Source: Gammaproteobacteria bacterium
GTDB taxonomy: Bacteria > Pseudomonadota > Gammaproteobacteria > GCA-001735895
Assembly (NCBI GenBank): GCA_050292965.1
Contig: JBNKMF010000011.1
Location: forward strand, 5,010 to 69,009
Direction of reading: 5' to 3'
DNA: 64,000 nucleotides
This document shows, one piece after another, positions 35,351-56,642 of this stretch (positions within the stretch are counted from its first letter, which is position 1; each line of letters starts with the position of its first letter). The notes below the pieces were generated by a model, which was not told where the DNA came from, did no database searches, and worked only from the letters and a program-made list of their open reading frames with translations. A program made the translations under genes and the position numbers.

Positions 35351-35373
35351 GAATTTTCCATCCAGCTAAAAAC

Positions 35374-37870: not shown

Positions 37871-38665
37871 TCAGGGTAACCTACCAGCTTCAACCAGTTT
37901 AGAAAGCAAAAGATTTGTTGATAGCCAACGTATCAGATCATCATACTCAGCACCACTTTGGTTACTACGCTGAGCGTAGACAAAGATTCGATCCATTGTC
38001 GCAGCAACATTAAAGTTATCCAGATTCTCAGCCTGAATATTGGATGTTGAGTTCGCTTGATCTTTGCCTGTAGAAATTACAACAGCGGCAACTCGGGACA
38101 TGACTTCTTTCGTTCCAACAGGGCAGACAATCTGATCCCCTATTGCTGGACTATCATCACATATATGGATATCTCCAACCATATTACCGAAAACCTGAGC
38201 TTTAATATTTACCCGGTCTATAAAATCATCATTCGCCCCAGCCCCGTCAGATACTGCATATAAATAGGGTTTTCCCCACGGGTCGAGCAACCTGCCCATA
38301 TCATCATAACGACCTTGAATACCTAAAGTTTTCCCAGGTAAATATGCGAAGTCAGAATCGCAATCCCAGGTAACATTAACATCTTCTTCCCCATCAAAAT
38401 CAGTTGCTACCACCGTACTATCTGGGCAGGGCAAACGCCCATCAACCTGAGCAAAGCGGATCAGGTATTTTATGATAGAGTCCATTTCTTCATTTGCTGT
38501 TTCATATTGCTTCACATCATGCTGTGCAGGATAAATACCGACTGTGTAGCCTAACAATATAGTAACTATTAAAAACACCAGCGTCACCTCAACCAGTGTA
38601 AAACCAGATATTGCTTTAGGATTTATTGAATTAGAAAAGAATTTATACGGCTGCATGATATGCAT
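37871..38665 (-). CDS. Large prepilin-type protein (264 aa) with the GRLPCPD motif
   Basis: Leader …KAISG/FTLVEVTLVFLIV with Glu5. DGRLPCPD. Four Cys in the same pattern as the 258-aa paralog. Confidence 0.7.
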   Translation of the reverse strand: MHIMQPYKFFSNSINPKAISGFTLVEVTLVFLIVTILLGYTVGIYPAQHDVKQYETANEEMDSIIKYLIRFAQVDGRLPCPDSTVVATDFDGEEDVNVTWDCDSDFAYLPGKTLGIQGRYDDMGRLLDPWGKPYLYAVSDGAGANDDFIDRVNIKAQVFGNMVGDIHICDDSPAIGDQIVCPVGTKEVMSRVAAVVISTGKDQANSTSNIQAENLDNFNVAATMDRIFVYAQRSNQSGAEYDDLIRWLSTNLLLSKLVEAGRLP

Positions 38666-38693
38666 AGATTTAGTAATTAAATTATCATGCTAA

Positions 38694-39470
38694 TTATAAC
38701 TGCCCAGCATCTATCATTTTTGAATACAGAATATTCGGACTAATCCATTTCACGATATCATCATACTCAGCTCCTTTTACATCACTACGAGAAGTTTTTA
38801 CAAAAATTCGATCATTACTTGTCGCAGTCAGGCCTGCGTCTGTATTTTCTTTTTGAATATCCGAGTCAACCCGCCCCCTGTCTTTACCCAACGAAAGGAT
38901 AACAGCAGGCACATTTTCTGCTACAGCACCTGAGGCACCTCCAGGGCAAGTCAACTGAGTGCCTCCAACAGGCCCATTGGTTATACAGATAGACAGATCG
39001 GGAGCTAATCCAGCTATACCGACTGCTTTAATATCACCTGTGATAACAAAATCACCACCTGCACCCATTCCTGTATCATCTGATGTAACCTGATATCGAT
39101 AGGGCGACCCCCAGGGGTCTTGCAGTGAAAAATTACCATCCAAGCTACCATCTAAACCTAGTGTTTTAGTAGGAACATATCCGTACCACTCAGTGCAATC
39201 TGTGGTACCACCAGTTGGGTCCTCTACTCCATCAGGGGCATCCATATCATCGGCACACGGTAATCGTCCATTCACCTGTGCGAAGGCATACAGAGCATTC
39301 AGGATTTGATCCATTTCAGCATTCGCTTTACGGTATTGTTTCAACTCCTGCTGCACAGGGACCATGGCGACGGTATAACCCAACAGAATGGTGACAATAA
39401 TCAACACGATTGCAATTTCAATCAATGTGAAGCCTGTCATTTTATTCGCTTTTGGGCTCATCAGATGCAA
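38694..39470 (-). CDS. Large prepilin-type protein (258 aa) with the GRLPCAD motif
   Basis: Leader …NKMTG/FTLIEIAIVLIIV with Glu5. NGRLPCAD. C-terminus …YDDIVKWISPNILYSKMIDAGQL parallels the 264-aa paralog. Confidence 0.7.
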   Translation of the reverse strand: MHLMSPKANKMTGFTLIEIAIVLIIVTILLGYTVAMVPVQQELKQYRKANAEMDQILNALYAFAQVNGRLPCADDMDAPDGVEDPTGGTTDCTEWYGYVPTKTLGLDGSLDGNFSLQDPWGSPYRYQVTSDDTGMGAGGDFVITGDIKAVGIAGLAPDLSICITNGPVGGTQLTCPGGASGAVAENVPAVILSLGKDRGRVDSDIQKENTDAGLTATSNDRIFVKTSRSDVKGAEYDDIVKWISPNILYSKMIDAGQL

Positions 39471-41038
39471 CCCGTAACTTTAAGAGGGGGTGTAGTAGAT
39501 GGATCTACAACGATACAATACAGGAGATCATTAATATCACCAGTTGTAGGATCCGACCCTTTATAATACATAGTATCATTGCCGGTATAGGCAATATCTG
39601 AAGGATACTGATGCGCATTACTCTCAGTGGTCACGGTCGCAGAAGATTTGGCATCCAGATAGTTAGAGAGCTGGTTTTTTTCATCTGTAGACTCCAATGG
39701 TTCCGCATCTCTGGACTGAGTCGACACGATACTATCAGAATAAAAAACGATACCCGCTACTTTAGTACCCGCCGTTATTCCATTCACCGTTACACAATCA
39801 GTAGAGGTAATGCATCGGCTGTTTAACGAAGAAGTAGAGCCCCCCATTTGAAAATCAGAAGACACCACATAGAAAAAATGATCTTTCCAGTTTTGCCAGA
39901 GTTTCTTTTCAGCATCGGGGGTAGCACTAGTTCCTGCGCTTGTAGGCAGACAGCCAGCCTCCGAAATTATATCCTGCATATTAGCGAATACTTGTACGGG
40001 ACTAGATGTCACAGTGTTTTCTTTGTCGTTACTGTCTTTTATATTGAATGGAAAGCGTCCCATTAATAATGCAGGGCTATCCTGATCGTCATAATTTGAA
40101 TCGCTCCGATACTCACTCAAATCGATTGGTGCAGGCCAGGGTAACCAGTGATGTTCATTATTAGTATCATTCGCATAATTTGCCAAACATTGCGCCAGAG
40201 CTTTTGTGAGCTGATTAATCCCCTTTGTGCTATCACTGGTATCAAGATCTTTCTGAGCTTTAATCGCAGCCCAGTATTCTGATTTTGTGATCCACACCAT
40301 GCGGTCATTATATGCGCTATTTTCAAGATTTTTGCCTGCTGATGCATAGAGGTAGGTCCAAATGGTATCTGCGACTTTGGCATGATCGCTTGTATAATCT
40401 ATAACACCTCCTGATTCAAGATAATTACCTTCATCATAATTACCTCGACAAAGTCTCATACTGGGATCATCCAGACTTCTATCCTGATCACCCAAAGTAG
40501 CTCTGGGTGCAAAAATAATGGCAATAGGTCGATCCTCTGGATTGTTACCATAATACAGATTACCATCTTCATCTTGAATATCGAGTAATCCATTAGTATC
40601 TTCATTCAACATATCAGCTTTTGGCATGTCTTTATACTCACCCGAAACCACGTACCAGAGACACTCCCCTGCACTGTCTTTCAAGGCTTCTATACCCAGT
40701 GTTTTCCATGGTAAAAAACCCACTGAATTCACATGCTTACCACCACAAGAGGTATCCTGAGCACCTTCTGAGACGCCAGGGGAGGCTTCAAACTTGTGAT
40801 CGGGACAGGGTAGACGCCCCATTTCATCCAGTTTACTTGTTTTTTTATACTCCACAGCATAACTTAACAAAGCCTGTTTTGCTTTTCTTAACACAGCCTG
40901 ATCATGCTCAACCTTTTCAATATAGACGGTTTTTGTTTTATTCTGCATTAAGTTAGACCCAACAACACCGGCAAAGCCCAGCAGCACTACAATAAAAATC
41001 AACAGGGCAAAACCAGATTGATTAATTTGGATTCGCAT
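39461..41038 (-). CDS. Giant (525 aa) pilin-like protein lacking Glu5, GspK/PilX-like role
   Basis: MRIQINQSG/FALLIFIVVLLGFAG has no Glu at +5. MGRLPCPD motif. Overlaps the next gene by 10 nt. Confidence 0.6.
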   Translation of the reverse strand: MRIQINQSGFALLIFIVVLLGFAGVVGSNLMQNKTKTVYIEKVEHDQAVLRKAKQALLSYAVEYKKTSKLDEMGRLPCPDHKFEASPGVSEGAQDTSCGGKHVNSVGFLPWKTLGIEALKDSAGECLWYVVSGEYKDMPKADMLNEDTNGLLDIQDEDGNLYYGNNPEDRPIAIIFAPRATLGDQDRSLDDPSMRLCRGNYDEGNYLESGGVIDYTSDHAKVADTIWTYLYASAGKNLENSAYNDRMVWITKSEYWAAIKAQKDLDTSDSTKGINQLTKALAQCLANYANDTNNEHHWLPWPAPIDLSEYRSDSNYDDQDSPALLMGRFPFNIKDSNDKENTVTSSPVQVFANMQDIISEAGCLPTSAGTSATPDAEKKLWQNWKDHFFYVVSSDFQMGGSTSSLNSRCITSTDCVTVNGITAGTKVAGIVFYSDSIVSTQSRDAEPLESTDEKNQLSNYLDAKSSATVTTESNAHQYPSDIAYTGNDTMYYKGSDPTTGDINDLLYCIVVDPSTTPPLKVTGCI

Positions 41039-41046
41039 GGCTCAAA

Positions 41047-41502
41047 TTATTGCTGAATAGTTCGAAGGTAGGTCAAATCAAGAACTTCACCACTGACAGC
41101 CGAGTAATTTTTACCATCGGGGGCTGTAATAACGACAGAGCTGTTCTTAATCCTGATCTTAGATCCATCATCCATGACTTCTCCAGATTCATACGCCTGA
41201 CCATTTATCCATGCGGTCTTACTTCCCTCGTTATTCGTAGAAACTCCTGATATTTTGTAAGTTAATACTACCTCTTCCTTTTTTACCTCGCGCTCTGCAT
41301 CAACATTCTGTTGCTCTGGTTCAACTTGAGGCTGTATATTCTCAACCGGTTTATCCTCTTTATAACGATTGCTATCAATGATCTGGCGCTCCTTAGCGGT
41401 AGTAAACAGGGTTTGCATCTGCGATAGATCTTGCGATGAAACCTTTGCGCTATAACCGCATAAGAGCACGAGAACAAATAAAATATTTTTAACTTTTAGC
41501 AT
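41047..41502 (-). CDS. PilP/MshK/GspC-HR-like periplasmic protein
   Basis: Signal peptide, charged linker, and a C-terminal beta domain (…ISGVSTNNEGSKTAWINGQAYESGEVMDDGSKIRIKNSSVVI…). Confidence 0.5.
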   Translation of the reverse strand: MLKVKNILFVLVLLCGYSAKVSSQDLSQMQTLFTTAKERQIIDSNRYKEDKPVENIQPQVEPEQQNVDAEREVKKEEVVLTYKISGVSTNNEGSKTAWINGQAYESGEVMDDGSKIRIKNSSVVITAPDGKNYSAVSGEVLDLTYLRTIQQ

Positions 41503-42091
41503 CGATACTAATCCAGCGAATCACACAGTTTGAATTCAAGTTAGCTTTTTGTGTATCAAACCTTTTACCTACGGCTCCCAGTAAAGTCATACTGCAACTA
41601 TCTACTGTAAAAAGATTACTTATTGATGAACTCAGGCCATCCAGTAAGGCGAATAAATCTTCCTCATGTAATAAGGACATAGTCAATTCCATAGGTGAGC
41701 TTTTCACTTCGACCTTATTTTCAACTTTTAATTTTGGACGTTCAAAATCTTCCTGTGGTAATAAATTAAAGCTTAGCCTGGGCAGTTTAAGCACTGAATT
41801 GGTTGATCGCAGGCTTTCTATCCAGCTCAACCTGCGCTCTCCACCCACTAAACCACTAGCCTTATAATCCGAATACTTGACCGTATATTGTTCCAGCAAA
41901 TCTATATCCTTAACCAGATTTTTGTATTTCTTATGCGTTGCTCTCAGACTTGCTGTTCCCTTCTGATAAGCTGTTACCTGGGCTTCTTCGTATTGCAAAC
42001 CCGAGTACACCAGAGCAACTGATAAAATAACCGCTACCAAAAGAAATATCAGGGTTCGCTTAAGAAAAAGAAAGTCGATTTTATTTTTCAT
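41489..42091 (-). CDS. PilO/MshJ/GspM-like bitopic assembly protein
   Basis: Single TM helix, coiled-coil segment, small C-terminal domain. Its position between the PilM-N-like and PilP-like genes supports the call. Confidence 0.5.
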   Translation of the reverse strand: MKNKIDFLFLKRTLIFLLVAVILSVALVYSGLQYEEAQVTAYQKGTASLRATHKKYKNLVKDIDLLEQYTVKYSDYKASGLVGGERRLSWIESLRSTNSVLKLPRLSFNLLPQEDFERPKLKVENKVEVKSSPMELTMSLLHEEDLFALLDGLSSSISNLFTVDSCSMTLLGAVGKRFDTQKANLNSNCVIRWISIDAKS

Positions 42092-43670
42092 CTGTTATTA
42101 CCTTTCTTACAACCCGAATAGAAAACTCTGCCTTATTCTCACTTCTCTTTATATCGGAACTGACATCACCCGATAATCGGTTATTAGACTCAATATCTAA
42201 CGGACGTTTTAAAACAGTTACCGAGTCAAAATCATTTGACACTTTCATAGCATCTTCCAGATCGTCGACAGCACTTAATGCATATCGATAATTCCCATCA
42301 AACTCCAGGAATTCACCCGATATAACCGCTACTTCATATAGATCTTTTCCTACTGCTGCTGTTGATCTATTTCGACCACGCCCCGAGTTCTTCCCTCCCC
42401 ATGAAACATCGCTAATTGATATAGCATCTGCAGAGTTAGATATAAACCAGTCAAGTTTTTTTAAACGCATTAAATCAAACAGTGACAGGTGCTGGCTGAT
42501 TTTGACGAGCAAGTCTTCTGGTCGAGCCTGATAAAACCTGTCAATCTTCTCTACCGTTTTCACCACTGCCTGCATAGTTGTTGTACTGGTACTAGAATCC
42601 GTTCGACTGGCTGAAAGCTGATTAAATTTGGATTGATATTTTTGTTCGACTAACTGCATTTCATTTACAGTCTTACCATATAACATTCCCTTAACAACCG
42701 ATGTAGCAAAAAGTCCAGTTGACGTAGCAATCAATATAATACTAATAACTTTAGTAGTAACTGCTGCAAGATGATGATAAAAATATTTTTTCTCGGTGGC
42801 ATTTGCATAATGATTAGCTAGCATTTTTTTTGACGCATGGTAGCAAAATAAAATTGAGCTAAAGTCCTGTTCTTCATTAATCTCAATTTTTTCCTCATCT
42901 ATAACATCATTTACATTATGGATGTGATAATCAAAATACTCATCTTCTGCACACTTAATAGTTAGTTTATCTTTATGCCTTTCATTACAGAGTATATGCA
43001 CCGATATTACATCAGTCCGGTCTATAATCCTCTGACTAAAAAGATAGCGCTGGGTACCTTCTACATCTCGAACAACATCAGAGGCATAATCACCCTGATA
43101 AAAACTGGCAATAGGAACCAGGCGGCTGAGAATTAATTTACCATTAATGAAAACGGATTGACGAAGATTGCTGGGTACCTGTTGAGTCACCAGAATTATG
43201 CACTCATGATCGCCTTTAAACCTGGCGATAAAGTCTTCACTGATTAATGGCAGACTTAATATACCGGATAATGGGGTACGAGTAGAATCAATAATATCCA
43301 GCCAGGGTTTTAACAGGTACTGGTTAGTCAGCCCCATTAATAACAGATGTTCTTCTTTTCTACCTTTTTTTACAACTGACTGAGATTTAGCCAGACGATA
43401 CTCAGAATTTCTAAAAAACTTGGTGAAATTCCTGTTGATGATTTGAATTCTATCCGGACCTCTTAGAAAGGGTATCTTGACCTGACGAAACTCTTCTTCA
43501 ATCAAGTCTATTAATAACCGGACCGGCTCATTTTTAAGTGATTCAAGATAGGCCGTAAATAAATCCAGCCCCTGCTCATCTGGCTCAAAATAAACACTAC
43601 TTTGCAGCTTAGTCCCGGACCACTCCTGGGCAACCATTCTATATCCTGTAAAGTAGAGAACTCTTTTCAT
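42081..43670 (-). CDS. MshI/GspL-like fused PilM-PilN-type assembly protein
   Basis: A cytoplasmic domain of about 300 aa, one TM helix (VTTKVISIILIATSTGLFATSVV), and a periplasmic tail. Immediately downstream of the platform gene. Confidence 0.5.
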   Translation of the reverse strand: MKRVLYFTGYRMVAQEWSGTKLQSSVYFEPDEQGLDLFTAYLESLKNEPVRLLIDLIEEEFRQVKIPFLRGPDRIQIINRNFTKFFRNSEYRLAKSQSVVKKGRKEEHLLLMGLTNQYLLKPWLDIIDSTRTPLSGILSLPLISEDFIARFKGDHECIILVTQQVPSNLRQSVFINGKLILSRLVPIASFYQGDYASDVVRDVEGTQRYLFSQRIIDRTDVISVHILCNERHKDKLTIKCAEDEYFDYHIHNVNDVIDEEKIEINEEQDFSSILFCYHASKKMLANHYANATEKKYFYHHLAAVTTKVISIILIATSTGLFATSVVKGMLYGKTVNEMQLVEQKYQSKFNQLSASRTDSSTSTTTMQAVVKTVEKIDRFYQARPEDLLVKISQHLSLFDLMRLKKLDWFISNSADAISISDVSWGGKNSGRGRNRSTAAVGKDLYEVAVISGEFLEFDGNYRYALSAVDDLEDAMKVSNDFDSVTVLKRPLDIESNNRLSGDVSSDIKRSENKAEFSIRVVRKVITDEK

Positions 43671-43676
43671 AATTAT

Positions 43677-44882
43677 TTAAAAGTCTATGGTGCTAATAGT
43701 GTCATAAATTGGACCCAGTACAGAGAGCGCTAACCAAAGTACAATAATGCCAATTACTGCCATTAGTGAGGTTTGCAAAATGGGTTCAAGCTTATCGATC
43801 TCGTCATTTATATCTCTTTCATAAAAATAGCTTACATTTTTTAACGATTCATCCATTCGACCAGTAGATTCTCCCACGCGCAGCATTCGAATGACCAGAG
43901 GGGGAAATATCCCAATATTCTGGAAGCTTTCACTGATACTGCCACCTTCTGATATTTGAACCCACGCACGGTCAATACCATCTTCCAGCACTAGATTACT
44001 AACTACAGATTTACTCATTTTGATTGCATCGAGAACGGTAATTCCTGAAGCAAACATTAAGGCGAAGTACCTGGTAAAACGAGAAATTTTTATTTTTTCA
44101 TTCACATCACCAATGGGCCAGGCCCTGAGCAATATGCCATCCATTTTAAATCGAAATTTAGCGTTATTTTTATAAAAATGACTGATAACAAAGATCAGGG
44201 CTATGGGAGTCGCAATTACGATATACCAGTAATTAATCAAGAACCCTGATACTGCCATAAGCGCTCTGGTTTCCAACGGTATTTCTCCACCCAGAGATAC
44301 AATCGCACTCATTATGTCGGGCACGACAAATATCATCAGGAACATAATAACAGCCATAATCAATGAACCGATCACTGCTGGATAGGTCATGATTTTCCTT
44401 GCCTTACCGATTATTTCATCTTGCCATTTAAGGGTTTCTGTAATATCAGATAGTACTTCAGCCATTTTACCGCTGCGCTCTCCAACCTTAACCAGGCTGA
44501 CGAAGACGTTGTCAAACACCCTGGGATAGATTGCTAATGCTTTGGAGAAGGAATTACCACCCTCAACCGCTTCTATCACACTGGCAATAACATCACGGAA
44601 GCCTGGATTTTCTTCGCTTTCTCTCAAGTCTTTCAAGCCATCAAGGATAGGCACGCCTGATCGGGTTAACTGCTCAAGGTGAAAGCTAAAGTTTATAAGA
44701 TCACGGCGCTTAATTTTATTGCGTCCAAAAATATCTGCCCCGGGTTCTTTTTGCTTGAAAGTAATCAGGTCGAGGCTCATTTTTTCCAGACGTAATTCCA
44801 GATCGGCAATATTACCCGCGTCCAGACTCCCCTGAATAAATTTACCCGTCTTATCTATGGCTTTATATTTATATAGTGGCAT
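43677..44882 (-). CDS. GspF/PilC/MshG-family inner-membrane platform protein
   Basis: MPLYKYKAIDKTGK… N-terminus, two T2SSF repeats and three TM helices. Confidence 0.85.
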   Translation of the reverse strand: MPLYKYKAIDKTGKFIQGSLDAGNIADLELRLEKMSLDLITFKQKEPGADIFGRNKIKRRDLINFSFHLEQLTRSGVPILDGLKDLRESEENPGFRDVIASVIEAVEGGNSFSKALAIYPRVFDNVFVSLVKVGERSGKMAEVLSDITETLKWQDEIIGKARKIMTYPAVIGSLIMAVIMFLMIFVVPDIMSAIVSLGGEIPLETRALMAVSGFLINYWYIVIATPIALIFVISHFYKNNAKFRFKMDGILLRAWPIGDVNEKIKISRFTRYFALMFASGITVLDAIKMSKSVVSNLVLEDGIDRAWVQISEGGSISESFQNIGIFPPLVIRMLRVGESTGRMDESLKNVSYFYERDINDEIDKLEPILQTSLMAVIGIIVLWLALSVLGPIYDTISTIDF

Positions 44883-44886
44883 AGCG

Positions 44887-46602
44887 CTAGGTCATCCTGT
44901 CGGTCAGGTCAGTTACACGCGATATTTCTTCAATAGAAGTAATACCGCTTAGAACATGCCGTATCCCATCATCAGCAAGGGTGAAAAAACCTTGTTGATA
45001 AGCAACCTCTTTAATTTCTTTAGTTGTTGCACCATGCGCCAACATATCATCAAGATCAGAATTCATCTTGAGAATTTCCATCAGTGCCATACGCCCTTTA
45101 TAACCCGAGTTTTCGCAGGCTGAACAACCTTTGGCGCGATATATTTTATTTGGCCTAATGCCATCAGGGTTAGTTAAAAGCCTGAGCTCATGCTCGTCAG
45201 GATGGTATGCCTCCTTACAGTATTTGCACAATTTACGTATCAAGCGTTGCGCAATAACACCAATTATATTACCCGCCATAATTTCAGGCATAATGCCAAT
45301 ATCCCTTAACCGGGGCAGAGCACCAATGGCTGAGTTCGTGTGCAGTGTAGAATAAACCTGATGACCAGTCATTGCTGCGCGAAATGCCATTTCAGCTGTA
45401 TCTTCATCACGAATCTCACCGACTAGAATAATATCAGGATCCTGTCGCATTAAGGATTTAATACCATCTGCAAAGTTCATACCTGCCATATCACTGACCG
45501 AAGTTTGCCGAATCAATGGAAAGGGGTATTCAACCGGATCTTCCAGGGTCATGACATTAACTTTTTCTGTACTCATATGATTGAGTAGTGAGTAAAGCGT
45601 GGTAGTTTTACCACTACCTGTGGGGCCGGTTACCAAAATCATACCTTCTGGCCGAGACATCATAATTTTCAGCATTCGCATCGAGGCTTCAGGTAGCTCC
45701 AATCCATCCAGTGGAATGACGCCTTTTTCCCTGTCCAGCACACGCAGAACGATATTTTCACCATGAATGGTTGGCTGCGATGCCACACGAAAATCTATCT
45801 GTCGACCAATGATAATTCTTGAAATTCGTCCATCCTGAGGTGATCGGGTCTCAGCAATATTCATATCTGCCATGACCTTTAAGCGAACCGCAATTGCGGC
45901 CCAATAGGTTTTGTGCAGGCTTCGAATCTGCCTTAAAACACCATCTATTCGGTATCGAATGCGCAGGAAGCTTTCTTCTGGTTCAAAGTGAATATCTGAT
46001 GCGCCTCGCTTTACCGCATCCGCCATCATGACATCCACCAGTCTTACCAGCGGCTGACTGTATTCTTCAATATCACCCTGATAATTAGTGTAATCAGCTT
46101 CACCTGTCTCGATTTCACGCAAGATGCCATCGATGGACAGCTCATATCCATAGAACTGGTCTATGGCATTCGAAATTTCTGTTTCTCCAGCCAGTACTGG
46201 TGTGATATCAACATGCTGTCCAATCTGAATACGAATACGATCCAGTGTAAAAAGATTAAACGTATCCGACATAGCAATGGTTAGACTGCCTGTCGCACTG
46301 TTGTAATTAAGAGGGATAACCTTGTGTTTGCGCGCGGTCTCTGAGTCTATTAAAGTGATCGCTTCGGGATCTGGTACCACATTGGCAAGATCAACACTGT
46401 CCTGCTCCAGAGCTTCACCTAGTGCCGAACGCATTATAGCTTCGGTAGCAAACCCTAGATTTACCAGCAGCTTACCTAATGGTAAGTCGACTTTTTTCTG
46501 CTCAGTAAGAGCTATATTCAATTGATCAGGAGTGATAACTCCTTCATCGATGAGTATTTCACCCAGCCTTTTTGGCTTGTTTGGAGCATGCACAGTTTTC
46601 AC
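44887..46602 (-). CDS. GspE/PilB/MshE-family assembly ATPase with an MshEN-type N-terminus
   Basis: Walker A GPTGSGKTT, Asp and His boxes, a tetracysteine motif (CKYC…CSAC). N-terminal RLGEILIDEGVITPDQLNIALTEQ plus LGKLLVNLGF. Confidence 0.9.
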   Translation of the reverse strand: MKTVHAPNKPKRLGEILIDEGVITPDQLNIALTEQKKVDLPLGKLLVNLGFATEAIMRSALGEALEQDSVDLANVVPDPEAITLIDSETARKHKVIPLNYNSATGSLTIAMSDTFNLFTLDRIRIQIGQHVDITPVLAGETEISNAIDQFYGYELSIDGILREIETGEADYTNYQGDIEEYSQPLVRLVDVMMADAVKRGASDIHFEPEESFLRIRYRIDGVLRQIRSLHKTYWAAIAVRLKVMADMNIAETRSPQDGRISRIIIGRQIDFRVASQPTIHGENIVLRVLDREKGVIPLDGLELPEASMRMLKIMMSRPEGMILVTGPTGSGKTTTLYSLLNHMSTEKVNVMTLEDPVEYPFPLIRQTSVSDMAGMNFADGIKSLMRQDPDIILVGEIRDEDTAEMAFRAAMTGHQVYSTLHTNSAIGALPRLRDIGIMPEIMAGNIIGVIAQRLIRKLCKYCKEAYHPDEHELRLLTNPDGIRPNKIYRAKGCSACENSGYKGRMALMEILKMNSDLDDMLAHGATTKEIKEVAYQQGFFTLADDGIRHVLSGITSIEEISRVTDLTDRMT

Positions 46603-48833
46603 TGACTTAACACCTTAATACGTTGCATAACAACTGGCTCACTGAATGAAGCTAACCCATTGGCCCTGTTCTCTAGTGCTCGCTGATAAAACGTGATCGC
46701 TGAAGCTATTTTTTCCAGATGTTCAAGACTGATCGCCATGTTATACGCATAGTTAGGGTCATTGGGTTTGTACTGTAGCGCTTTAAAATATTCACTTTGC
46801 GCTTCCGGCCAACGATTCTGATTACCAAACATATTACCTAATGCAAAATGCAGATAAGGGGAATCTGGTAACTCAGTCAATAGCCGTTTTATTTCCGTTT
46901 CTCCAACCTGCGGATCTACATTAGCTACTGAGATAAGTGATGTCATCGCCAAATCATCCTTCGGATTGGCAAGTAAAAGCTTCTGATATAAAGTAATAGC
47001 ATTCTCAAATTGATTATCATAAACATGAATAGCAGCCCTGCCTAATAATGCATCCCTGTTCTCCGGGTCAAGGGCGATTACCTGCTGATATTTCTTCCTG
47101 GCTTCACTAATATTTCCAGATTCATAGGCAGCATAAGCTTCAGCCAATAGCTTATCTTTTTTAGAAACACGATTATTTGAAGAAATTCGCAAAGAAGTCT
47201 GTTTAGTAGGAGATGCTGATGGTTGTTTTTTTGAACTTGGCGCAGTCTTCGTAGCAGGTGGCTTCTGCGCCTGGCTTCTCAAAGAGACTACTGAGTCTTT
47301 TTGTGCCTGAGTTTGGGCGGCTGTAGCGCCTTTATCTTCTGTGCTAGCCTGCTGGAGCTCACCCGAAACACCTTCATTAATGGCATTTGCGTTCTCTATC
47401 ACCTTAATCGCTTTATTATCAACCTGCGGAACAGATGAAAACAGCTTAACCGGTTCAGGTTGATCTTTAGGTTTAATAATTCCCGGCATAGGGTCTCTCT
47501 TTAAAGCAATCAAATTATTATCGATTGATTCAGATTCAGACTGGATTTGAAAAAGACCCCAGATAACAACGGCCAGTAAGATACTTAAAGCAACACCGGC
47601 ATAAACTTTGTAGTAATAGTTCTTAACACCGCGAGATTTGCTGATAAATACCTTTTTAGCATAGTCTGGCGTCATCACAGAGTCAGTCTCTGACCTCATC
47701 CCTGGAAATATACGGGAGACATCATTTTCTGACAGCTTCATCAATGTCCTGTCGTAATTGTCAGGTGCAAAGGTACGTGTAAAAGTATTATCTTTTATGG
47801 TTACCGTTTCATCATTGGTTAATTTTTCAATATTTACTGTAGATGAAGCTCCATCAGCGTTCTGTAACGTCGAACTTTCATCATCAAGCTGGTCTGCATT
47901 TGAATGATCATTAGCGTGATCCTGTAAAGACTGCTCACCAACGAAGCCACTATAGGTAGCAGATTCAGTTCGGGTTGAGTCCTGCCCCGATGGATATTCC
48001 TGATCATCCATCTTGTCCTGTTCTAATTCATCCTGAGCTATATCTGCCAGAGTTAGAGAATCTGAATTTGAAATTGTTGTATCATCAGGCCCTATATGAC
48101 TGACCGGCGTTGGTTTTGAGTCCTGAGGGTAATGACCATCACCAAGAAACTCTGTAATATCGTCAGGCGTTAAAACTTCGGTTTCATCTTCTACAGGCGT
48201 ATCATCTTCATCATCTAGAAATGATAAAACCTGATCATCATCTGAATCCCAGTGGGAATTTTCCTCTGCAGCTAGTTGAGATAAATCCAGCTTACTTATA
48301 TCCAGTTCCAGAGTAGACTCCTGACTGACCTGATCCAGTTGACTACTTTCTACCTGAGTAGAACCTGTTTTCAAGGTTGTATCAGTCGCCTTTTTATCCC
48401 GCTGTGAAGCATCCAACTCAACTGCATCAAGCTGGGTAGCATCTACCCGAGTTTCTTCATCACTAGAAGCGGACTTTAGGGGATCCAGTTCGCTAGCCTC
48501 TGGAGCCTGAGTAAACTGCTGGCTGGAGTGATCTAATTGGGTGACATCTATCTGAGCAGGATCAATTTTTAGAGTCGTGTCAGTAGCTGTTTTATCCAGA
48601 TGGGTTGCTTCTAACTCAGTTGCATCTAACTCAGTTGCATCAATCTGGGTGGCATCAAGTTTTTCAGCACTCAGCTCAGTTTCCGTCATCGCCACTGTTT
48701 TATCTGCGATGGTTTCGTCATCTGATAACTGAGTTTTAGTCAGAACATCTGTTTTTTCTACCGATGTATTTTCAGCATCTTTCTGCGCTTTCTTCTCAGC
48801 GGCTTTTTTCAATGCATCTAATAGTAAACTCAT
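46599..48833 (-). CDS. GspB/MshN-like bitopic TPR protein with a long acidic repeat region
   Basis: N-terminus MSLLLDALKKAAEK (GspB/MshN-type). About 350 aa of D/E/T/Q-rich repeats (LDATQIDATELDATELEAT…). One TM helix around 47555-47620. C-terminal TPR repeats. Confidence 0.6.
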   Translation of the reverse strand: MSLLLDALKKAAEKKAQKDAENTSVEKTDVLTKTQLSDDETIADKTVAMTETELSAEKLDATQIDATELDATELEATHLDKTATDTTLKIDPAQIDVTQLDHSSQQFTQAPEASELDPLKSASSDEETRVDATQLDAVELDASQRDKKATDTTLKTGSTQVESSQLDQVSQESTLELDISKLDLSQLAAEENSHWDSDDDQVLSFLDDEDDTPVEDETEVLTPDDITEFLGDGHYPQDSKPTPVSHIGPDDTTISNSDSLTLADIAQDELEQDKMDDQEYPSGQDSTRTESATYSGFVGEQSLQDHANDHSNADQLDDESSTLQNADGASSTVNIEKLTNDETVTIKDNTFTRTFAPDNYDRTLMKLSENDVSRIFPGMRSETDSVMTPDYAKKVFISKSRGVKNYYYKVYAGVALSILLAVVIWGLFQIQSESESIDNNLIALKRDPMPGIIKPKDQPEPVKLFSSVPQVDNKAIKVIENANAINEGVSGELQQASTEDKGATAAQTQAQKDSVVSLRSQAQKPPATKTAPSSKKQPSASPTKQTSLRISSNNRVSKKDKLLAEAYAAYESGNISEARKKYQQVIALDPENRDALLGRAAIHVYDNQFENAITLYQKLLLANPKDDLAMTSLISVANVDPQVGETEIKRLLTELPDSPYLHFALGNMFGNQNRWPEAQSEYFKALQYKPNDPNYAYNMAISLEHLEKIASAITFYQRALENRANGLASFSEPVVMQRIKVLSQ

Positions 48834-48855
48834 AGCAATCCCCTGTCGGTTGTCG

Positions 48856-50430
48856 CTATTCTGCTAACAGACGGGGTTTAAGGTAGCGTTGAAAATCAGT
48901 CAAATCGCCATTCAAACTCGCACTATCGATAATTCTGGGTCTGAGAAAAATAACCAGTTCAGTCTTGTTAGTATTTTTTGCCTGTGTCCCAAAAAGGACG
49001 CCGACACCTTTCACGTCATGCAATCCGGGGATACCTGCACTATTCTGATCGGTGCTATTTTCCATCAAGCCCCCAATGATCGCCGTTTCTCCATTGGAAA
49101 CTCTGAGTACCGACTCCATCTCTCGCACCTGAATCTCAGGCACCTTATTAGAAGAAGCAGTATTTACTCCGTCTGGCATTGGTGCCTCTATGAATCCAAG
49201 AATTCTGGATATGGTAGGACGAATATTTAAAATGATTTCTTCACTATCGGTAATAAAAGGAGTGACGCTCATAACAAACCCAACAGGCACAGTATGGACC
49301 GTAGAAGTAAAAGTCGTCGTTTTTCCGGTATTATTATTGATAGCAGCCTCTTCTTTGACCTTGGTTGTAAAATAAACACGGTTGTCTACCACTTTTAATA
49401 TTGAAGTCTGGTTGTTAATCGCCATGATTTTGGGACTGGACATGACTGATACATCGCCAAATGAGTCAAGCGCTTTAAGGGCCGCAGTTATTTTTCCATC
49501 ACTATTATTCCTGATATAGCTTGCTGTCAAACTGGGGGGAGAACCCAGCGTGTTTCCAAGTACCTCTTGCTTAATGGTCCAACCGTTTCCATTAGCAATT
49601 CTTTCCCAGTCGACGCCTGCCTGAAACTCATCGCTAAGGGTCACTTCAACAACGGTAGCTTCAATTAATACCTGTTTGCGTACACTGGACATAACCTGAT
49701 CGATAAAGGCCTGAATTGCATCATGATTCGAAGCTGTAGTCATAACAGAAATGGTTCCGCCCTCTTTATTCACAATCACCGTACTCTCAGCACCATTACT
49801 GCCCGCTATAGCTATAAGGTTAGCCTCCATAGTCTTCCAGAAGCTATTATCGCTCTTATTTGTGATATCAGTAGAGGAGTTACTGCCACCACCGCCACCG
49901 CCTTCCGCACTGGACCCGGTTGAAGCAATCTGAGTTGCAATGGATACACCGGAGGTAGTTGATCTTTCCATATTCAGATAATTGATCTGATAGTTACGCA
50001 TAAACGGTAAATCTCGTTCTACCACCAGATTAGGGCCATCAATGTAGTAATGCAGATTAATTTGCCGAGAAATTCTTTTAAGGATCTGTGGCAATGTTTG
50101 ATCTATCGCATTAATACTCACATTTCCAGAAATTGCGGGGTCGATATCCAGATTCAGACGAGCGTCTCTGGCTAAGGCAAACAACAACTCATTAGCTGGC
50201 AAATCAGTGGCAACTACAGTAAATACCTGTAATTTTTTAGTTGGTTTGGGGGCTTCCACTATGGGTAATTGATGCACTACGGCTGGAATATCCTGCTTTA
50301 TCGCAGGTTTTTCGGGAACAGCATTGCCTAAATGCCCGGTCGATACGGACATGCGATCATCAGTACCTTTCGATACAGTCTGGCAGGCCACAAGACTGAA
50401 TAGCACCGTTATAAAAGTTAGATATTTCAT
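48856..50430 (-). CDS. Secretin, MshL-like lipoprotein
   Basis: Lipobox LVAC, N-terminal domain, poly-Gly/Ser linker, secretin core VLIEATVVEVTLSDEFQAGVDW…GIPGL…LVIFLRPRI. Confidence 0.85.
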   Translation of the reverse strand: MKYLTFITVLFSLVACQTVSKGTDDRMSVSTGHLGNAVPEKPAIKQDIPAVVHQLPIVEAPKPTKKLQVFTVVATDLPANELLFALARDARLNLDIDPAISGNVSINAIDQTLPQILKRISRQINLHYYIDGPNLVVERDLPFMRNYQINYLNMERSTTSGVSIATQIASTGSSAEGGGGGGSNSSTDITNKSDNSFWKTMEANLIAIAGSNGAESTVIVNKEGGTISVMTTASNHDAIQAFIDQVMSSVRKQVLIEATVVEVTLSDEFQAGVDWERIANGNGWTIKQEVLGNTLGSPPSLTASYIRNNSDGKITAALKALDSFGDVSVMSSPKIMAINNQTSILKVVDNRVYFTTKVKEEAAINNNTGKTTTFTSTVHTVPVGFVMSVTPFITDSEEIILNIRPTISRILGFIEAPMPDGVNTASSNKVPEIQVREMESVLRVSNGETAIIGGLMENSTDQNSAGIPGLHDVKGVGVLFGTQAKNTNKTELVIFLRPRIIDSASLNGDLTDFQRYLKPRLLAE

Positions 50431-50465
50431 TGTTTTTCCCAGTCCTTACAAGAACCTGTTCAAAT

Positions 50466-52136
50466 TTATAACAACTCTTCCTGCATTCGGTTGATAGAAT
50501 GCAAATAGGGTGAATTGACTCGCAACGATTCGGGTAATTGTTTAATGCTCAAATTCCCCAAAGTAACGGTAGGGTACTCACCATAGAATACCCGGTAAAT
50601 ACTGCTATCCTTCAACTTGACTTCATATAGATATGTTTTATCCAGATCCAGAGGCCAGTCATTTTGCAGATACATTGCGAGCTCTTTCATCGCTACCTTG
50701 CTGCGCATCATTACCTGAATAGAAACACCACTCCTGTTAGCTGCATTCAACCATTTTTTACTCTGTCGTATTTTACTCTGTAACCATGCGTCATAGTTTT
50801 GAGTTATTTTACTTGAAGACTGCGCTTCAAGAGGCTGATTTCCAGTAACTTTATCAAGTTTAACTCCTGATTGTTGATTTTTTTTTGAACTACCCGACTT
50901 TTTATCAAGTGGATTTATCTTATCGGCATTTGCCACCTGTAACTGCAAGGTTTGTTTTTTGCCCGTCTTACCATCTTCTATAGCAGCATTATTTTTTTCT
51001 GCTACCCTTAACTCTGGCTCAATAACTTCTAGCTCTGGCTCAATAACTTCAGGTCCAGCCAATTGATGATCCACCTCTTCAACGTAGGACTGAATTTCAG
51101 AAGAAGCGGCAGCCTTATTCATCTTTTCTTCAACAGGCGCTGTAGCAAATGTGTTTTTTGAGTTTTCTTTTTCAGGCGCTCCAATTAACCCTACTATTTC
51201 TGTGCTCAACTTCGCCAGCGCCCCCTGCTTATACCCGATGTAGGCCGCCAGCAAGATTAACAGGGCAAATATCCCTGAAACCATCAGCATTATTATTGAC
51301 GGTGATTTGTTCTGTTTATAATGCAGCTCACTAAACCCACTATCTCTCACCGCATTCATCAGGTGCTTGCTAGTAATATTATGAGTGTCATCAGCAAATG
51401 CCGACAGGAGCATCTTATCAGCCAGAATATTTATGCGCCTTAACAAACCAGCCGAGTGCTTCGCCATCCCCTGAGCCAGCTTTTTACTGATAAGCTCAGG
51501 CCCTGTATAACCGACTTCTCGCATTCTGAAATTCAGGTATTTATGAATCTCTTCAGCGGTTAAAGGTGAAAGCTTAAAATCGTGGGTAATCCTTTCGCGT
51601 AACTGGCGAATAGATTTATTAGCCAGATTCTCATCCAGCTCAGGCTGACCGAACAGGATAATTTGCAATAATTTATGCTGATCAGTTTCAAGGTTGGATA
51701 ACAGTCGTATCTCTTCGAGCGTTTCCAGCGGCATTCCCTGAGCCTCTTCAACAAACAATACGACTTGCTTATTTTCAGCATGCCTTTTTAAAAGATAGTT
51801 CTGCAGCATGCTAACCAGCTCATGCTTGGAGGCATCGCGCTTCACATCAAACTTGAGCTCATCAGCTATCACAAAAAGAATATCTTCTGGGGACACAGAT
51901 GGGTTAGCGATATAGATAATCTCAACATCGTCAGGCAGTTCAATTTGAAGCATACGGCATAGCATGGTTTTACCACTTCCCACTTCACCAACTACCTTAA
52001 CAATACCTTCGCCTCGGTGAACGGCATATACCAGCGCCCCAAGAATATCTCCACGATGTCCACCGTCAAAGAATAGAGAAGTATCCGGCGTGATGCGGAA
52101 TGGTTGTCGAGCTAATCCAAAGTACTCTTCATACAC
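50466..52136 (-). CDS. ExeA/GspA/MshM-like AAA+ ATPase fused to a TM segment and a C-terminal SPOR-like domain
   Basis: MYEEYFGL…PF, Walker A GEVGSGKT, TM helix IIMLMVSGIFALLILLAAYIGY. C-terminus …VSIQVMMRSKVAMKELAMYLQ…IYRVFYGEYPT… resembles SPOR. Confidence 0.7.
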   Translation of the reverse strand: MYEEYFGLARQPFRITPDTSLFFDGGHRGDILGALVYAVHRGEGIVKVVGEVGSGKTMLCRMLQIELPDDVEIIYIANPSVSPEDILFVIADELKFDVKRDASKHELVSMLQNYLLKRHAENKQVVLFVEEAQGMPLETLEEIRLLSNLETDQHKLLQIILFGQPELDENLANKSIRQLRERITHDFKLSPLTAEEIHKYLNFRMREVGYTGPELISKKLAQGMAKHSAGLLRRINILADKMLLSAFADDTHNITSKHLMNAVRDSGFSELHYKQNKSPSIIMLMVSGIFALLILLAAYIGYKQGALAKLSTEIVGLIGAPEKENSKNTFATAPVEEKMNKAAASSEIQSYVEEVDHQLAGPEVIEPELEVIEPELRVAEKNNAAIEDGKTGKKQTLQLQVANADKINPLDKKSGSSKKNQQSGVKLDKVTGNQPLEAQSSSKITQNYDAWLQSKIRQSKKWLNAANRSGVSIQVMMRSKVAMKELAMYLQNDWPLDLDKTYLYEVKLKDSSIYRVFYGEYPTVTLGNLSIKQLPESLRVNSPYLHSINRMQEELL

Positions 52137-52197
52137 AGGTAATCACCCTAACCCTTTATTGTTGAAACCCAGAATATTTCTCATACCAGTTACTTTA

Positions 52198-53586
52198 TTA
52201 TTCTCCTGAACGCCCCATACGCCCATACAGTGTCGAGCGATTGACACCCAGTAGCGCAGCCGCTTTACTCATGTTATTGGAGCTTTCTTTTAGCGCAAGT
52301 TCGATATAGCGCTGTTCTAGACGTTTTAACTCTTCATTTAACTGGAAATCTCCTGAATGCAGGTTTTTCAGAAAGATCTCATCCTCGTTCATCCCAGCAT
52401 TGCGTACCCTTTTACCCGTCATCTCAATATCCAGCACCGAGCGCTTGATGGTTTGGCCGGGATACTTAGCTGATAGTCGAATGACTATATTGCGCAATTC
52501 ACGCACATTGCCGGGGAATTCATATTCCATCCACAGAGATTTCGCGTCTTCATCCAGCACAAAACCCTGAGTTTGGGGGTTTACTAATTGCTGAAAATGA
52601 TCAAGCAATACCAGCTTATCCTCTTTTCGCTCATGCAGACCAGGAACTCGCAATGTAAGCACACTGAGTCGGTGGTAAAGATCTTCTCTAAATTCCCCCC
52701 TATCTATAGCGGCCAGCAAATCTTTATTGCTAGCAGCCAGCACTCTAGCTGTAGAGGTACGCGCTCGAGTTTCTCCAAGGCGGTAGTATTCACCGTTTTC
52801 CAGTACGCGTAGTAATTTAGCCTGCAAATCGAGCGGTAAATCGGCGATTTCATCAAGCAACAACGTGCCGTCACCAGCCTCTTCAAAAAAACCATTTTTT
52901 GAATCAGTTGCCCCGGTAAATGCGCCTCGCACATGACCAAACAACTGAGACTCCAGTAACTCCCCATTAAAAGCGGCACAATTTAATGTAAAAAAAGGGC
53001 TGGATTCTCTAATACTTAAGTTATGCAAATAATGAGCAGCCAACTCCTTACCACTACCCGAAGCCCCTTCTATTAACACCGGGTAAGGAGAGTCGGCCAA
53101 CTGTTTGATCTGCATGCGTAATAATTCAATAGCTGGACTCTCACCGACTATGCCTTTTAGTGGACGTTGCTCAGGCTCGTCATTTTGATCTTTACTCAGG
53201 TAGGGGCTTAAGCGTGCTTTAAGAGCTGCTACATCACAGGGCTTGGAAATAAAATCAACAGCGCCCAGCTTTTTGGCACTTTCGACATATTTATGATCAT
53301 CCTGACCCGATAAAACAATAATCTGAGTCATTGGAAAATGTTCATGAATATACTCAATGACCGCAAAGCCTTCATCGGGTTTATGAGTGTCTGGAGGCAG
53401 CCCCAGATCAACCAGGGCCAGCATGGGTGGGGTCTGATAGCAAGCTAAAACCTGGATACAATTGAGTCGATCATAAGCAATTTTCACATCGTACTCATCA
53501 CTTAAGACGTACTCGAGGCTCTCTGCAATAATCGAATCATCATCGACCAATAAAAGTGTGGGATGCTGGATTGACTCGGAATTCAT
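52198..53586 (-). CDS. Sigma54-dependent response regulator (NtrC family, possibly PrsR-like)
   Basis: Receiver domain with VDLGLPPD, AAA+ domain with GASGSGKE and GAFTGA, C-terminal HTH AAALLGVNRSTLYGRM. Confidence 0.85.
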   Translation of the reverse strand: MNSESIQHPTLLLVDDDSIIAESLEYVLSDEYDVKIAYDRLNCIQVLACYQTPPMLALVDLGLPPDTHKPDEGFAVIEYIHEHFPMTQIIVLSGQDDHKYVESAKKLGAVDFISKPCDVAALKARLSPYLSKDQNDEPEQRPLKGIVGESPAIELLRMQIKQLADSPYPVLIEGASGSGKELAAHYLHNLSIRESSPFFTLNCAAFNGELLESQLFGHVRGAFTGATDSKNGFFEEAGDGTLLLDEIADLPLDLQAKLLRVLENGEYYRLGETRARTSTARVLAASNKDLLAAIDRGEFREDLYHRLSVLTLRVPGLHERKEDKLVLLDHFQQLVNPQTQGFVLDEDAKSLWMEYEFPGNVRELRNIVIRLSAKYPGQTIKRSVLDIEMTGKRVRNAGMNEDEIFLKNLHSGDFQLNEELKRLEQRYIELALKESSNNMSKAAALLGVNRSTLYGRMGRSGE

Positions 53587-53687: not shown

Positions 53688-54149
53688 TTAGGGTGGCGGA
53701 TTTGAAACTGTTGCGCGTATTCTGCGCGAAACATAATCAGGGTTGGCTCTTCCACCCAATATATAAACGCCACTGCTTGCTGTGGCAGTCAACTCATAAA
53801 CAATCACGTCCACGGTACCTTCCCGATGAGTTGATTGAGCGCAATTTAAATCGACAGTAAAAGGCTTTAAGGCTGGCTCAGCCGCTCCAAAAGCGACAGT
53901 AGTCGTGTCAATACTGGAAGCAGCACCGGTCGCATCGATACAGACCGCATTACTTACCAAAAGCCGGTAAATCGCATAATCCAGTGCCGAGCGTGCCGCC
54001 TGCATTGCCTGAGCACCTCTAACTGACATCGCAACGGTACTATGCTGAACAACACTCATATTGACCATATAACCCAACAGGCCCGCCACGACCACCAACA
54101 GAAAGATGGCAGTAACCAGCGAAAAGCCTTTTTGTGTCGCTCTTATCAT
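53688..54149 (-). CDS. mshP: MSHA minor pilin-like protein MshP
   Basis: QKG/FSLVTAIFLLVVVAGLLG without Glu5. Last gene of the msh pilin set. Confidence 0.6.
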   Translation of the reverse strand: MIRATQKGFSLVTAIFLLVVVAGLLGYMVNMSVVQHSTVAMSVRGAQAMQAARSALDYAIYRLLVSNAVCIDATGAASSIDTTTVAFGAAEPALKPFTVDLNCAQSTHREGTVDVIVYELTATASSGVYILGGRANPDYVSRRIRATVSNPPP

Positions 54150-56610: not shown

Positions 56611-56642
56611 AAAATAAATTTATAGAAGCGAGAATATCTGAT

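Follow-up and report, generated by a model that had tools for sequence, protein, structure and literature searches.

The question raised by the DNA analyzed here is what is encoded by a second set of type IV filament genes lying directly beside a canonical msh cluster, and to which of the known systems that set belongs. The window, meaning the whole stretch under study, comprises 64,000 nucleotides from a Gammaproteobacteria bacterium (NCBI GenBank assembly GCA_050292965.1, contig JBNKMF010000011.1, positions 5,010 to 69,009). An initial annotation, made from the sequence alone, had described a rearranged, complete machine resembling that of the mannose-sensitive hemagglutinin (MSHA) pilus in a block of 12 minus-strand genes (37871-53586) with the order M-L-N-E-G-I-J-K-pilins, and this description is borne out. 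The locus considered here, 31156-53586, appears to encode a complete type IV filament machine of a lineage outside canonical MSHA and most likely builds a surface pilus for attachment, a reading held with a probability of roughly 0.6 in which the functional steps are predicted from the genes. In what follows, X denotes the second-system family (the window clade, Thiogranum and Massilia), and canonical refers to the neighboring msh-type genes. Genes of the second system carry the letters M, L, N, E, G (the platform, also written F), I (529 aa), J (200 aa) and K (151 aa), and all features of the locus lie on the minus strand unless stated otherwise. Domains were called with Pfam and with NCBIfam models and their equivalog cutoffs, while folds were predicted with AlphaFold (AF2) and compared using Foldseek.

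The block was reproduced exactly by the list of open reading frames (ORFs), with 12 tightly packed genes running from 52198-53586 down to 37871-38665, intergenic gaps of at most 61 nt, overlaps at 39461 (10 nt), 41489 (14 nt), 42081 (11 nt) and 46599 (4 nt), and a plus-strand histidine kinase gene (36187-37869) whose end falls 1 nt short of the last pilin gene. The domain assignments proposed for these genes were mostly verified by Pfam and NCBIfam (REC-sigma54, AAA_22, Secretin, TPR, T2SSE with MshEN, T2SSF and N_methyl). Matches to T2SSE (1e-124), T2SSF (1e-48) and Secretin (3e-37), along with five prepilin-type genes featuring N_methyl domains or GFTL(I/V)E N-termini, place the locus in the type IV filament superfamily. 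All ORFs are intact and of lengths that agree with those of orthologues elsewhere, with no sign of frameshifts. A pseudogenized remnant was considered and rejected, as was an assembly artefact. The GC content of the locus (38-46%) is the same as that of the remaining window. The block is not the whole of the system. Past the kinase, the genes at 31156-36153 are syntenic with the 12-gene block in other genomes (tblastn, 80 related loci), so the second-system locus extends to 31156 and the boundaries first drawn, 37871-53586, were too narrow.

The same gene order is found in at least 80 other genomes. In a recurrence survey of one genome per GTDB species, 80 loci were returned and the window proteins were mapped onto them by tblastn. 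The detected genes were colinear with the window in 63/63 loci of the window's own clade (clade A) and in 17/17 loci of a distant clade (clade B, 23-29% identity), so that the recurrence proposed as a check by the initial annotation was seen in all 80. For the 529-aa family marker, a word-indexed search returned 387 homologues, and an exhaustive profile search recovered 1963 representative clusters at E<=1e-3 and 684 at E<=1e-30, nearly all of full length. Carriers are mostly uncultured marine Gammaproteobacteria, among them the Gamma3 symbiont of Olavius algarvensis; clade B is found in Thiohalobacter and Thiogranum, and Candidatus Kentron also carries the marker family. Two carriers have been cultured, Thiogranum longum and the betaproteobacterium Massilia sp. 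MS-15. In T. longum the order M-L-N-E-F-I-J-K-pilins is followed directly by canonical mshI-J-K-L-M-N-E, and in Massilia the order secretin-TPR-E-F-I-J-K-pilins is followed by a different two-component pair. The minimal conserved module thus consists of the lipoprotein secretin, the TPR protein, the ATPase, the platform, I, J, K, the pilin without Glu5 and the GspG-like pilin. Two loci carry genes that appear split or interrupted, namely that for the secretin in the Olavius Gamma3 locus (L011, 2597-5183) and those for both secretin and ATPase in L079 (4088-5709 and 6992-8693), which could reflect decay of the system or errors of assembly or frame.

That this system is undescribed, as had been suggested, is consistent with how it appears in the databases, where the system-specific proteins are all named hypothetical or uncharacterized, aside from the automatic name 'pseudopilin PulG' and a UniRef entry 'GspL cytoplasmic...'. 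No description of the second system was found in the open-access literature. A tblastn search of the ATPase against 72,556 plasmid records returned no family member, the best identity being 39.5%.

The machine begins, in its outer membrane part, with a lipoprotein secretin of the MshL type (48856-50430), which features Secretin and Secretin_N_2 domains and the lipobox LVAC. It just reaches the cutoff of the NCBIfam MshL model TIGR02519 (251.1 bits, cutoff 250.2) and falls below those of the GspD (156 bits, cutoff 351) and PilQ (103 bits, cutoff 284) equivalogs. Beside it lie the genes for its two presumed assembly helpers. The first (50466-52136) encodes a 556-aa MshM/ExeA-like AAA+ ATPase with an AAA_22 domain (2e-28, residues 41-170), a transmembrane (TM) helix at residues 280-298 and a C-terminal SPOR-like periplasmic domain. 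Its residues 1-266 are 38% identical to the adjacent MshM, and the protein is TIGR03015-like and has the ExeA/GspA architecture of an AAA+ domain, one TM helix and a periplasmic domain of peptidoglycan-binding type, built from different domains; no BLAST similarity to Escherichia coli GspA was detected. The SPOR-like domain named in the initial annotation stands for the family, with Pfam SPOR matches in 9/16 orthologues (best E 1.6e-5) and a faint one in T. longum, whereas the window copy itself has no match to Pfam SPOR. The second helper gene (46599-48833) encodes a 744-aa MshN/GspB-like bitopic protein, in which a TM helix (residues 410-428) separates a cytoplasmic N-terminal part, acidic and repetitive in sequence, from periplasmic TPR repeats weakly similar to MshN. 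In the window copy, residues 1-400 are cytoplasmic, highly acidic and repetitive (for example DATQIDATELDATELEAT); clade-B orthologues, including those of Thiogranum, are about 400 aa long and lack most of the region that is acidic here.

The motor consists of an extension ATPase and an inner-membrane platform protein. Along with its T2SSE domain, the ATPase (44887-46602) features an MshEN domain (1e-17), a Walker A motif (GPTGSGKT) and a tetracysteine motif (CKYC/CSAC). It carries the exact MshEN motif for cyclic di-GMP (c-di-GMP), RLGEILIDEGVITPDQLNIALTEQ, and scores 59 bits against the corresponding motif model NF053729 (cutoff 38), while it remains below cutoff for both PilB (518 bits, cutoff 676) and GspE (506 bits, cutoff 630). 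The platform protein (43677-44882) belongs to the GspF/PilC/MshG family, with two T2SSF domains; its best NCBIfam model is GspF at 286 bits, below the cutoff of 424.

The three proteins expected to join motor and secretin are more unusual. The 529-aa protein (42081-43670) has no Pfam, NCBIfam or PDB sequence match. Its AF2 model (pLDDT 73, from 15 homologues) predicts an actin-like domain, one TM helix and a periplasmic alpha/beta domain. The top Foldseek matches of this model are PilM structures from Pseudomonas, Thermus and Myxococcus (5eox, 5eou, 2ych and 3jc8, E ~1e-9), followed by FtsA, and GspL was not within the top 50. Of the PilM-N/GspL-like label given initially, the PilM-like part is thus supported by the predicted fold and the GspL-like part is not; the modeled architecture is of the MshI/GspL type, with a PilM-like domain fused to a periplasmic part. 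The 200-aa bitopic protein (41489-42091; TM helix 14-32), conserved in 68 loci, is presumed to be PilO/MshJ/GspM-like, and the 151-aa exported protein (41047-41502; signal-like N-terminus) is presumed to be PilP/MshK-like, on the strength of topology, gene position and one weak hhalign match. In that match, 41 columns of the 151-aa family align with MshK of T. longum, a single-sequence target, at E 0.012. A relaxed Pfam scan added a weak T2SSB match in 1/12 members of the 151-aa family and nothing consistent for the 200-aa family, which has no Pfam or PDB match. The I and J profiles gave no hhalign signal against T. longum MshI2 and MshJ, single-sequence targets of low power, and the I, J and K profiles found chance-level matches only among PDB sequences.

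With so many Msh-like parts, the locus might be nothing more than a standard MSHA cluster, or might have arisen from its msh neighbors by recent duplication. The TXSScan definition of MSH requires mshA, E, G, L and M in a single locus without a peptidase (PMC6668835), and X, with its MshM-like, MshN-like and MshEN-bearing proteins, its single locus and its lack of a peptidase, has a parts list of the MSH kind when compared with that definition by description. The secretin reaches the MshL cutoff, and an Aeromonas caviae record has three places that match the X ATPase, of which MshE, encoded in the msh locus, matches best. The initial annotation had been unable to place the locus in a named class; the MSH-type accessory set and the grouping of its secretin with MshL, at 97% support, do place it.

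Placement near MSHA is, however, different from membership in it, and descent from the adjacent genes by recent duplication was ruled out by low identity and a separate ATPase clade. Identities to the adjacent msh genes span 26-38% (37% for E, 26% for G, 27% for L and 38% for M), in keeping with the distant relationship judged by eye at the outset. Neighbor-joining trees, each with few reference sequences, were built for the ATPase core (385 columns, 200 bootstraps) and the secretin (368 columns, 100 bootstraps). The X ATPases of the window clade, Thiogranum and Massilia are monophyletic at 100%, and canonical MshE from the window, Aeromonas and Thiogranum forms a separate clade, also at 100%, in which the X ATPases are not nested. 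The X secretins and canonical MshL form a group, supported at 97%, that leaves out GspD and HofQ of E. coli, and canonical MshL is itself monophyletic at 97% with the X secretins outside. The gene order differs from that of msh and is fixed in 80/80 loci, neither the pilins nor the I, J and K proteins show detectable sequence similarity to their Msh counterparts, a SPOR fusion, a two-component system and ABC genes are peculiar to X, and the two systems stand side by side in distant genomes. An ordinary or recently duplicated MSHA cluster is therefore judged improbable. X would be best read, from these comparisons, as a sister lineage of MSH that lies outside the canonical clade, is not a type II secretion system (T2SS) and belongs within the known MSH/T2SS radiation.

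The proximity of the two systems is itself recurrent, since a canonical msh cluster adjoins X in the window, in three related loci (L002, L038 and L055) and in three Thiogranum genomes. The side on which msh lies differs: in the window clade it precedes the regulator gene on the upstream side, whereas in Thiogranum it is found downstream, past the pilin genes. The marker proteins of these two lineages are only ~25% identical. Such pairs include the window itself (msh at 53688-63968), T. longum (L084, 2863-21554), L074 and L080. The canonical cluster of T. longum starts with a 201-aa PilN-like gene, no PilM-like gene being called before it. The adjacency points either to an old tandem duplication that was kept or to functional coupling.

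The pilins raise a second alternative, namely that X is a divergent T2SS in which a periplasmic pseudopilus pushes folded cargo through the secretin. Three pilin genes close the 12-gene block. The first (39461-41038) encodes a 525-aa, disulfide-rich prepilin-like protein that begins G/FALLI and thus lacks Glu5, as had been noted initially, and that is presumed to be a tip or initiator subunit. Nine cysteines are invariant among 49 homologues, and the AF2 model is confident (pLDDT 87.7, pTM 0.86); Foldseek found no match for it in the PDB (best E 2.5) or BFVD, including GspK or any pilin. The next gene (38694-39470) encodes a 258-aa GspG-related pilin with an N_methyl domain and a weak GspG model match (7e-9), and the last (37871-38665) a 264-aa paralogue that is 45% identical to it. 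These two begin G/FTLIE and G/FTLVE, and an N-terminal module is common to them and the 525-aa protein. Relative to E. coli GspG, both keep all hallmarks (GFTLxE, LP..DPWG..Y, S.G.D and DD..W) but are longer, with tens of residues inserted internally and 20 more forming a C-terminal tail. The initial impression of a pilin family of their own is thus right as to their heavy elaboration, whereas by their motifs they are pseudopilin-type subunits. The 258-aa pilin is found in clades A and B and in Massilia. The 264-aa pilin is the best match in 4/63 clade-A loci and is confined to the closest relatives of the window; a few clade-B loci score as the 264-aa type (pilC), there as the sole pilin of that type.

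In favor of a T2SS, the best NCBIfam matches of all pilins are GspG and GspH, the platform is best matched by GspF, the subunit without Glu5 occupies the position of GspK, and the ATPase core, which lies 0.56-0.60 from MshE, GspE and PilB, is as near to GspE (0.58) as to MshE (0.60). ExeA/ExeB-like accessories are known from these systems, and in E. coli gspA and gspB adjoin gspC-O. The Gsp equivalogs, however, all remain far below cutoff, including GspG (36 bits, cutoff 89) and the GspD, GspE and GspF models scored above. In BLAST comparisons with the Gsp and Hof proteins of E. coli K-12, only E, F and D were similar, with nothing for GspA, B, C, L or M. A GspC bearing HR and PDZ domains was not found, the adaptor matches PilM, an MshEN domain replaces the GspL-binding N1 domain of the ATPase, and the secretin groups with MshL rather than GspD. 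The conserved genes that were mapped across the 80 loci, a set that does not extend to unassigned ORFs, also include no candidate cargo.

A further point against a T2SS is found beyond the kinase, where a candidate major pilin is encoded with its own sigma54 promoter, terminator and hypervariable patches. The initial annotation reported no small major pilin, which is true inside 37871-53586, but two copies of a 220-223-aa pilin gene lie just past the kinase. Copy 1 (33863-34525; listed ORF 220 aa, with an N_methyl domain) probably starts at MKVQTNKG/FTLVE, and copy 2 (32018-32689) is 79% identical to it. In clade A, the first ~70 mature residues are nearly invariant and are followed by hypervariable patches, the pattern expected of an exposed major subunit. 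The second copy, an ABC-ATPase fragment and short repeats are the products of a 1.84-kb tandem duplication (31259-32852 and 33048-34689, 71-84% identity), and most related loci are single-copy. The scar of this event (33048-33620) consists of an ABC-ATPase pseudogene fragment (33048-33211) and tandem repeats, with a 47-nt unit present three times (33324-33471) and a 50-nt unit twice (33523-33620). Taken together, a T2SS is considered an unlikely account of the locus.

The surface pilus is favored over a secretion pseudopilus, for which the odds are clearly smaller, because the major pilin gene is stand-alone, duplicated, hypervariable and strongly signaled, because the adaptor is of the PilM type, the ATPase of the MshEN type and the secretin of the MshL type, and because there is no recognizable GspC and there are no conserved cargo genes.

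The signals in question are most likely those of sigma54 control. A -24/-12 promoter motif lies 5' of pilin copy 1 (TGGCACATTTAATGCT, 34544-34559) and another 5' of copy 2 (TGGCATATTTAATGCT, 32708-32723), both having the form TGGCAC-N5-ATGCT directly upstream of the gene. A Shine-Dalgarno sequence, GGAGGA, precedes the ATG-AAA-ATT start of copy 2 (MKIQTNKG/FTLVE), and a terminator-like hairpin follows each copy (at 33810-33835 for copy 1), so that each candidate major pilin gene is its own promoter-terminator unit. The proteins that would act on these promoters are encoded within the locus. The first gene of the block (52198-53586) encodes a sigma54-dependent response regulator with REC, Sigma54_activat AAA+ and HTH_8 domains and a GAFTGA motif at residue 221, and the plus-strand gene that converges on the pilin genes (36187-37869) encodes a polytopic sensor histidine kinase with ~7-8 TM helices, an H-box HDIKN at 365 and an HATPase_c domain. 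A candidate PilS/PilR-type circuit can thus be put together from the histidine kinase, the enhancer-binding sigma54 regulator and the -24/-12 element in front of the pilin gene. The regulator was found in 30 clade-A loci and one clade-B locus (L064), and the kinase gene is syntenic in 23 clade-A loci. The promoter motif stands 5' of the orthologous pilin in 17/21 clade-A loci and 0/7 clade-B loci, and the seven without it also lack kinase and regulator; clade-B loci with full flanks have neither the regulator nor the sigma54 pilin promoter. An Rfam scan of the whole window, which would include a c-di-GMP riboswitch near the pilins, gave no matches.

The remaining genes of the extended locus include those of a predicted ABC transporter. 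A DrrA/GldA-like ATP-binding protein of the ABC-2 type (31156-31887; ABC_tran 1e-22; drrA and GldA models matched below their cutoffs) is syntenic in 23 loci. A 259-aa polytopic membrane protein with ~6 TM helices (35374-36153), presumed to be its permease partner, is syntenic in 26 loci including clade B and has no Pfam or NCBIfam match. Between the latter and the pilin genes lies the gene for a 243-aa bitopic protein (34619-35350), with an N-terminal TM helix and a helical, TPR-like appearance by eye, which is syntenic in 25 loci.

A third alternative is that X, rather than assembling a filament, serves export of exopolysaccharide or of the PEP-CTERM type, or secretes slime through its secretin. 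The kinase, whose core is weakly PrsK-like, the regulator, the AAA+ protein and the TPR protein find their best or near-best NCBIfam models in PrsK, PrsR, the XrtA-associated ATPase and PrsT. A GldA-like ATPase of the ABC-2 type accompanies the locus, and a published link exists between secretins and slime secretion (PMC12475490). All of the PEP-CTERM matches are nevertheless far below their cutoffs (PrsR 316 bits against 503, PrsK 59 against 300, the ATPase 221 against 324.5 and PrsT 36 against 312), and canonical MshM gives the same TIGR03015 match. The locus has no exosortase, glycosyltransferase or Wza-like gene, an exosortase gene was not found elsewhere in the window either, and a full set of prepilin-type subunits is present along with ATPase and platform protein. 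Export of this kind is thus very improbable.

Several observations weigh against the preferred reading of a surface pilus outside canonical MSHA. X is known from genes alone, with no known filament, substrate or phenotype in any member. The GspG-type pilins and the GspA/GspB-like M/N pair give a secretion role some probability, and the 220-aa pilin is a candidate major subunit chosen for its pattern of conservation. No prepilin peptidase gene and no PilT or other retraction ATPase is present in the window, as had been noted for the block, and the T. longum locus is without the ABC transporter. No homology of the 200-aa and 151-aa proteins to PilO/PilP, MshJ/MshK or GspM/GspC was detectable. 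In the trees, the backbone among X, MshE, GspE and PilB has 6-42% support, and monophyly of the X secretins has 63%.

If the locus does encode a surface pilus, its parts suggest how that pilus would work. The prepilins, comprising the 220-aa major subunit, one or two ~260-aa GspG-related subunits and the large subunit without Glu5, would be cut by a peptidase encoded elsewhere and polymerized by the motor, in which a hexameric ATPase (44887-46602) would act on the platform. The PilM-like fusion and the two small periplasmic proteins would align the inner-membrane motor with the lipoprotein secretin, whose insertion through the peptidoglycan may be helped, much as by ExeA/ExeB, by the TPR protein and the SPOR-bearing MshM-like AAA+ protein. 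Binding of c-di-GMP to the MshEN domain of the ATPase may license extension, a form of gating that has been shown for MshE of Vibrio cholerae (PMC4624765, PMC7096442). Transcription of the major pilin gene from its -24/-12 promoter would be activated by the polytopic kinase and the sigma54 regulator, like that of pilA by PilS/PilR, and the disulfide-rich 525-aa subunit lacking Glu5 may cap or prime the fiber.

It can also be suggested, tentatively and at less than even odds, that X ranks alongside MSH, T2SS and the type IVa pilus (T4aP) as a type IV filament lineage in its own right. Its own I, J and K families, a presumed tip subunit whose fold is new to solved structures, the SPOR-anchored ATPase and the linked sigma54 and ABC modules may speak for this. 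Such a lineage, kept beside canonical MSHA in marine and largely uncultured Gammaproteobacteria, among them the animal and ciliate symbionts Olavius Gamma3 and Candidatus Kentron, could supply a second adhesive fiber under different regulation for attaching to hosts or particles. The features that stand out most are three families of assembly proteins that lack sequence relatives, the fusion to SPOR and the confident 525-aa model without a structural match. Bacterial adhesion, motility, DNA uptake and secretion depend heavily on type IV filaments, and the MSH class has so far been defined from very few experimentally studied systems. In X, a widespread, unannotated sister lineage (~2000 representative marker clusters) carried for the most part by marine Gammaproteobacteria that have not been cultured, one finds assembly components that are new, a route through peptidoglycan for a secretin that relies on SPOR, and a presumed tip subunit with no match in PDB or BFVD. 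X and canonical msh furthermore show, as a natural example, that one genome can retain two related pilus machines next to each other, and the cultured T. longum and Massilia sp. MS-15 make X experimentally accessible.

Other genes in the window also bear on type IV filaments. A T4aP minor-pilin operon on the plus strand (16948-24013) encodes a GspH/FimU-like protein (16948-17472), an unassigned 161-aa ORF (17463-17948), PilW (17945-19015), PilX (18939-19535), a 1190-aa PilY1 (19556-23128) and a PilE/ComP-like pilin (23585-24013), so that the window carries parts of three type IV filament systems. Within the canonical cluster, the MshA-like major pilin gene (56104-56610), located between mshF and mshC, is on the plus strand, whereas all its msh neighbors are on the minus strand. 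A search for flanking inverted repeats yielded none that were convincing, and an invertible element is thus not supported. The second-system locus is itself flanked on the plus strand (26991-31147) by glnA and genes for an NtrB-like kinase and an NtrC-like sigma54 regulator, and many related loci likewise have an NtrC-like gene after that for the ABC ATPase, so that conservation extends to the genomic neighborhood. Three consecutive genes for CitMHS-family transporters, one with TrkA_C domains, lie farther away (7811-12826, minus strand).

Comparison with known systems shows where X agrees with each and where it departs. With MSHA it shares the MshL-type secretin, the MshM-like AAA+ protein, the MshN-like TPR protein, the ATPase with the MshEN c-di-GMP motif, a PilM-like fusion comparable to MshI and a single locus without prepilin peptidase or PilT. 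The canonical order, however, is I-J-K-L-M-N-E-G-F followed by B-A-C-D-O-P-Q, whereas that of X is M-L-N-E-G-I-J-K-pilins, with no MshF, MshH or MshQ in the locus. The MshM-like protein of X is extended by a TM helix and SPOR, and the MshN-like protein, in the window clade, by an acidic region of ~400 aa. The J- and K-like proteins are unrelated in sequence to MshJ and MshK, as are the pilins to MshA-D/O/P, the similarity of X pilins to Msh pilins being confined to the N-terminal helix; the sigma54 two-component system and the ABC transporter genes are likewise additions of X.

The T2SS resembles X in the GspG-type motifs of the ~260-aa pilins, the subunit lacking Glu5 in the position of GspK and the GspF-like platform, and its ExeA/ExeB (GspA/GspB) pair resembles X in combining a bitopic AAA+ protein, with a C-terminus of peptidoglycan-binding type, and a partner protein. 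In ExeA that C-terminal domain is PG_binding_1, in place of which the X protein has SPOR. X differs from the T2SS in having no GspC, no GspL-type adaptor and no GspO, in a secretin in which the N0-N3 architecture was not detected, and in an ATPase with an MshEN N-terminus instead of the N1 domain of GspE. The 525-aa protein is like GspK in being large, bearing a class III signal sequence, being encoded first among the pilins and lacking Glu5, and unlike it in its nine invariant cysteines and in a model without a structural match; it is presumably also comparable to the type IVb minor pilins CofB and TcpB.

In contrast to the T4aP, X has its PilM-like domain fused to a PilN-like periplasmic part, falls below the cutoffs of the PilB and PilQ models and has no PilT in the locus. 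With regard to regulation, X resembles PilS/PilR-pilA by arrangement, pairing a polytopic kinase and a sigma54 regulator with a -24/-12 promoter 5' of the major pilin gene. In Myxococcus xanthus, the order pilS-pilR-pilA-pilG-pilH-pilI places the ABC-transporter genes pilGHI beside the pilin gene (PMC6060248), an arrangement that X resembles with its own ATPase, membrane protein and third protein beside the pilin. In this manner X extends the known superfamily of type IV filaments, and no concept is overturned.

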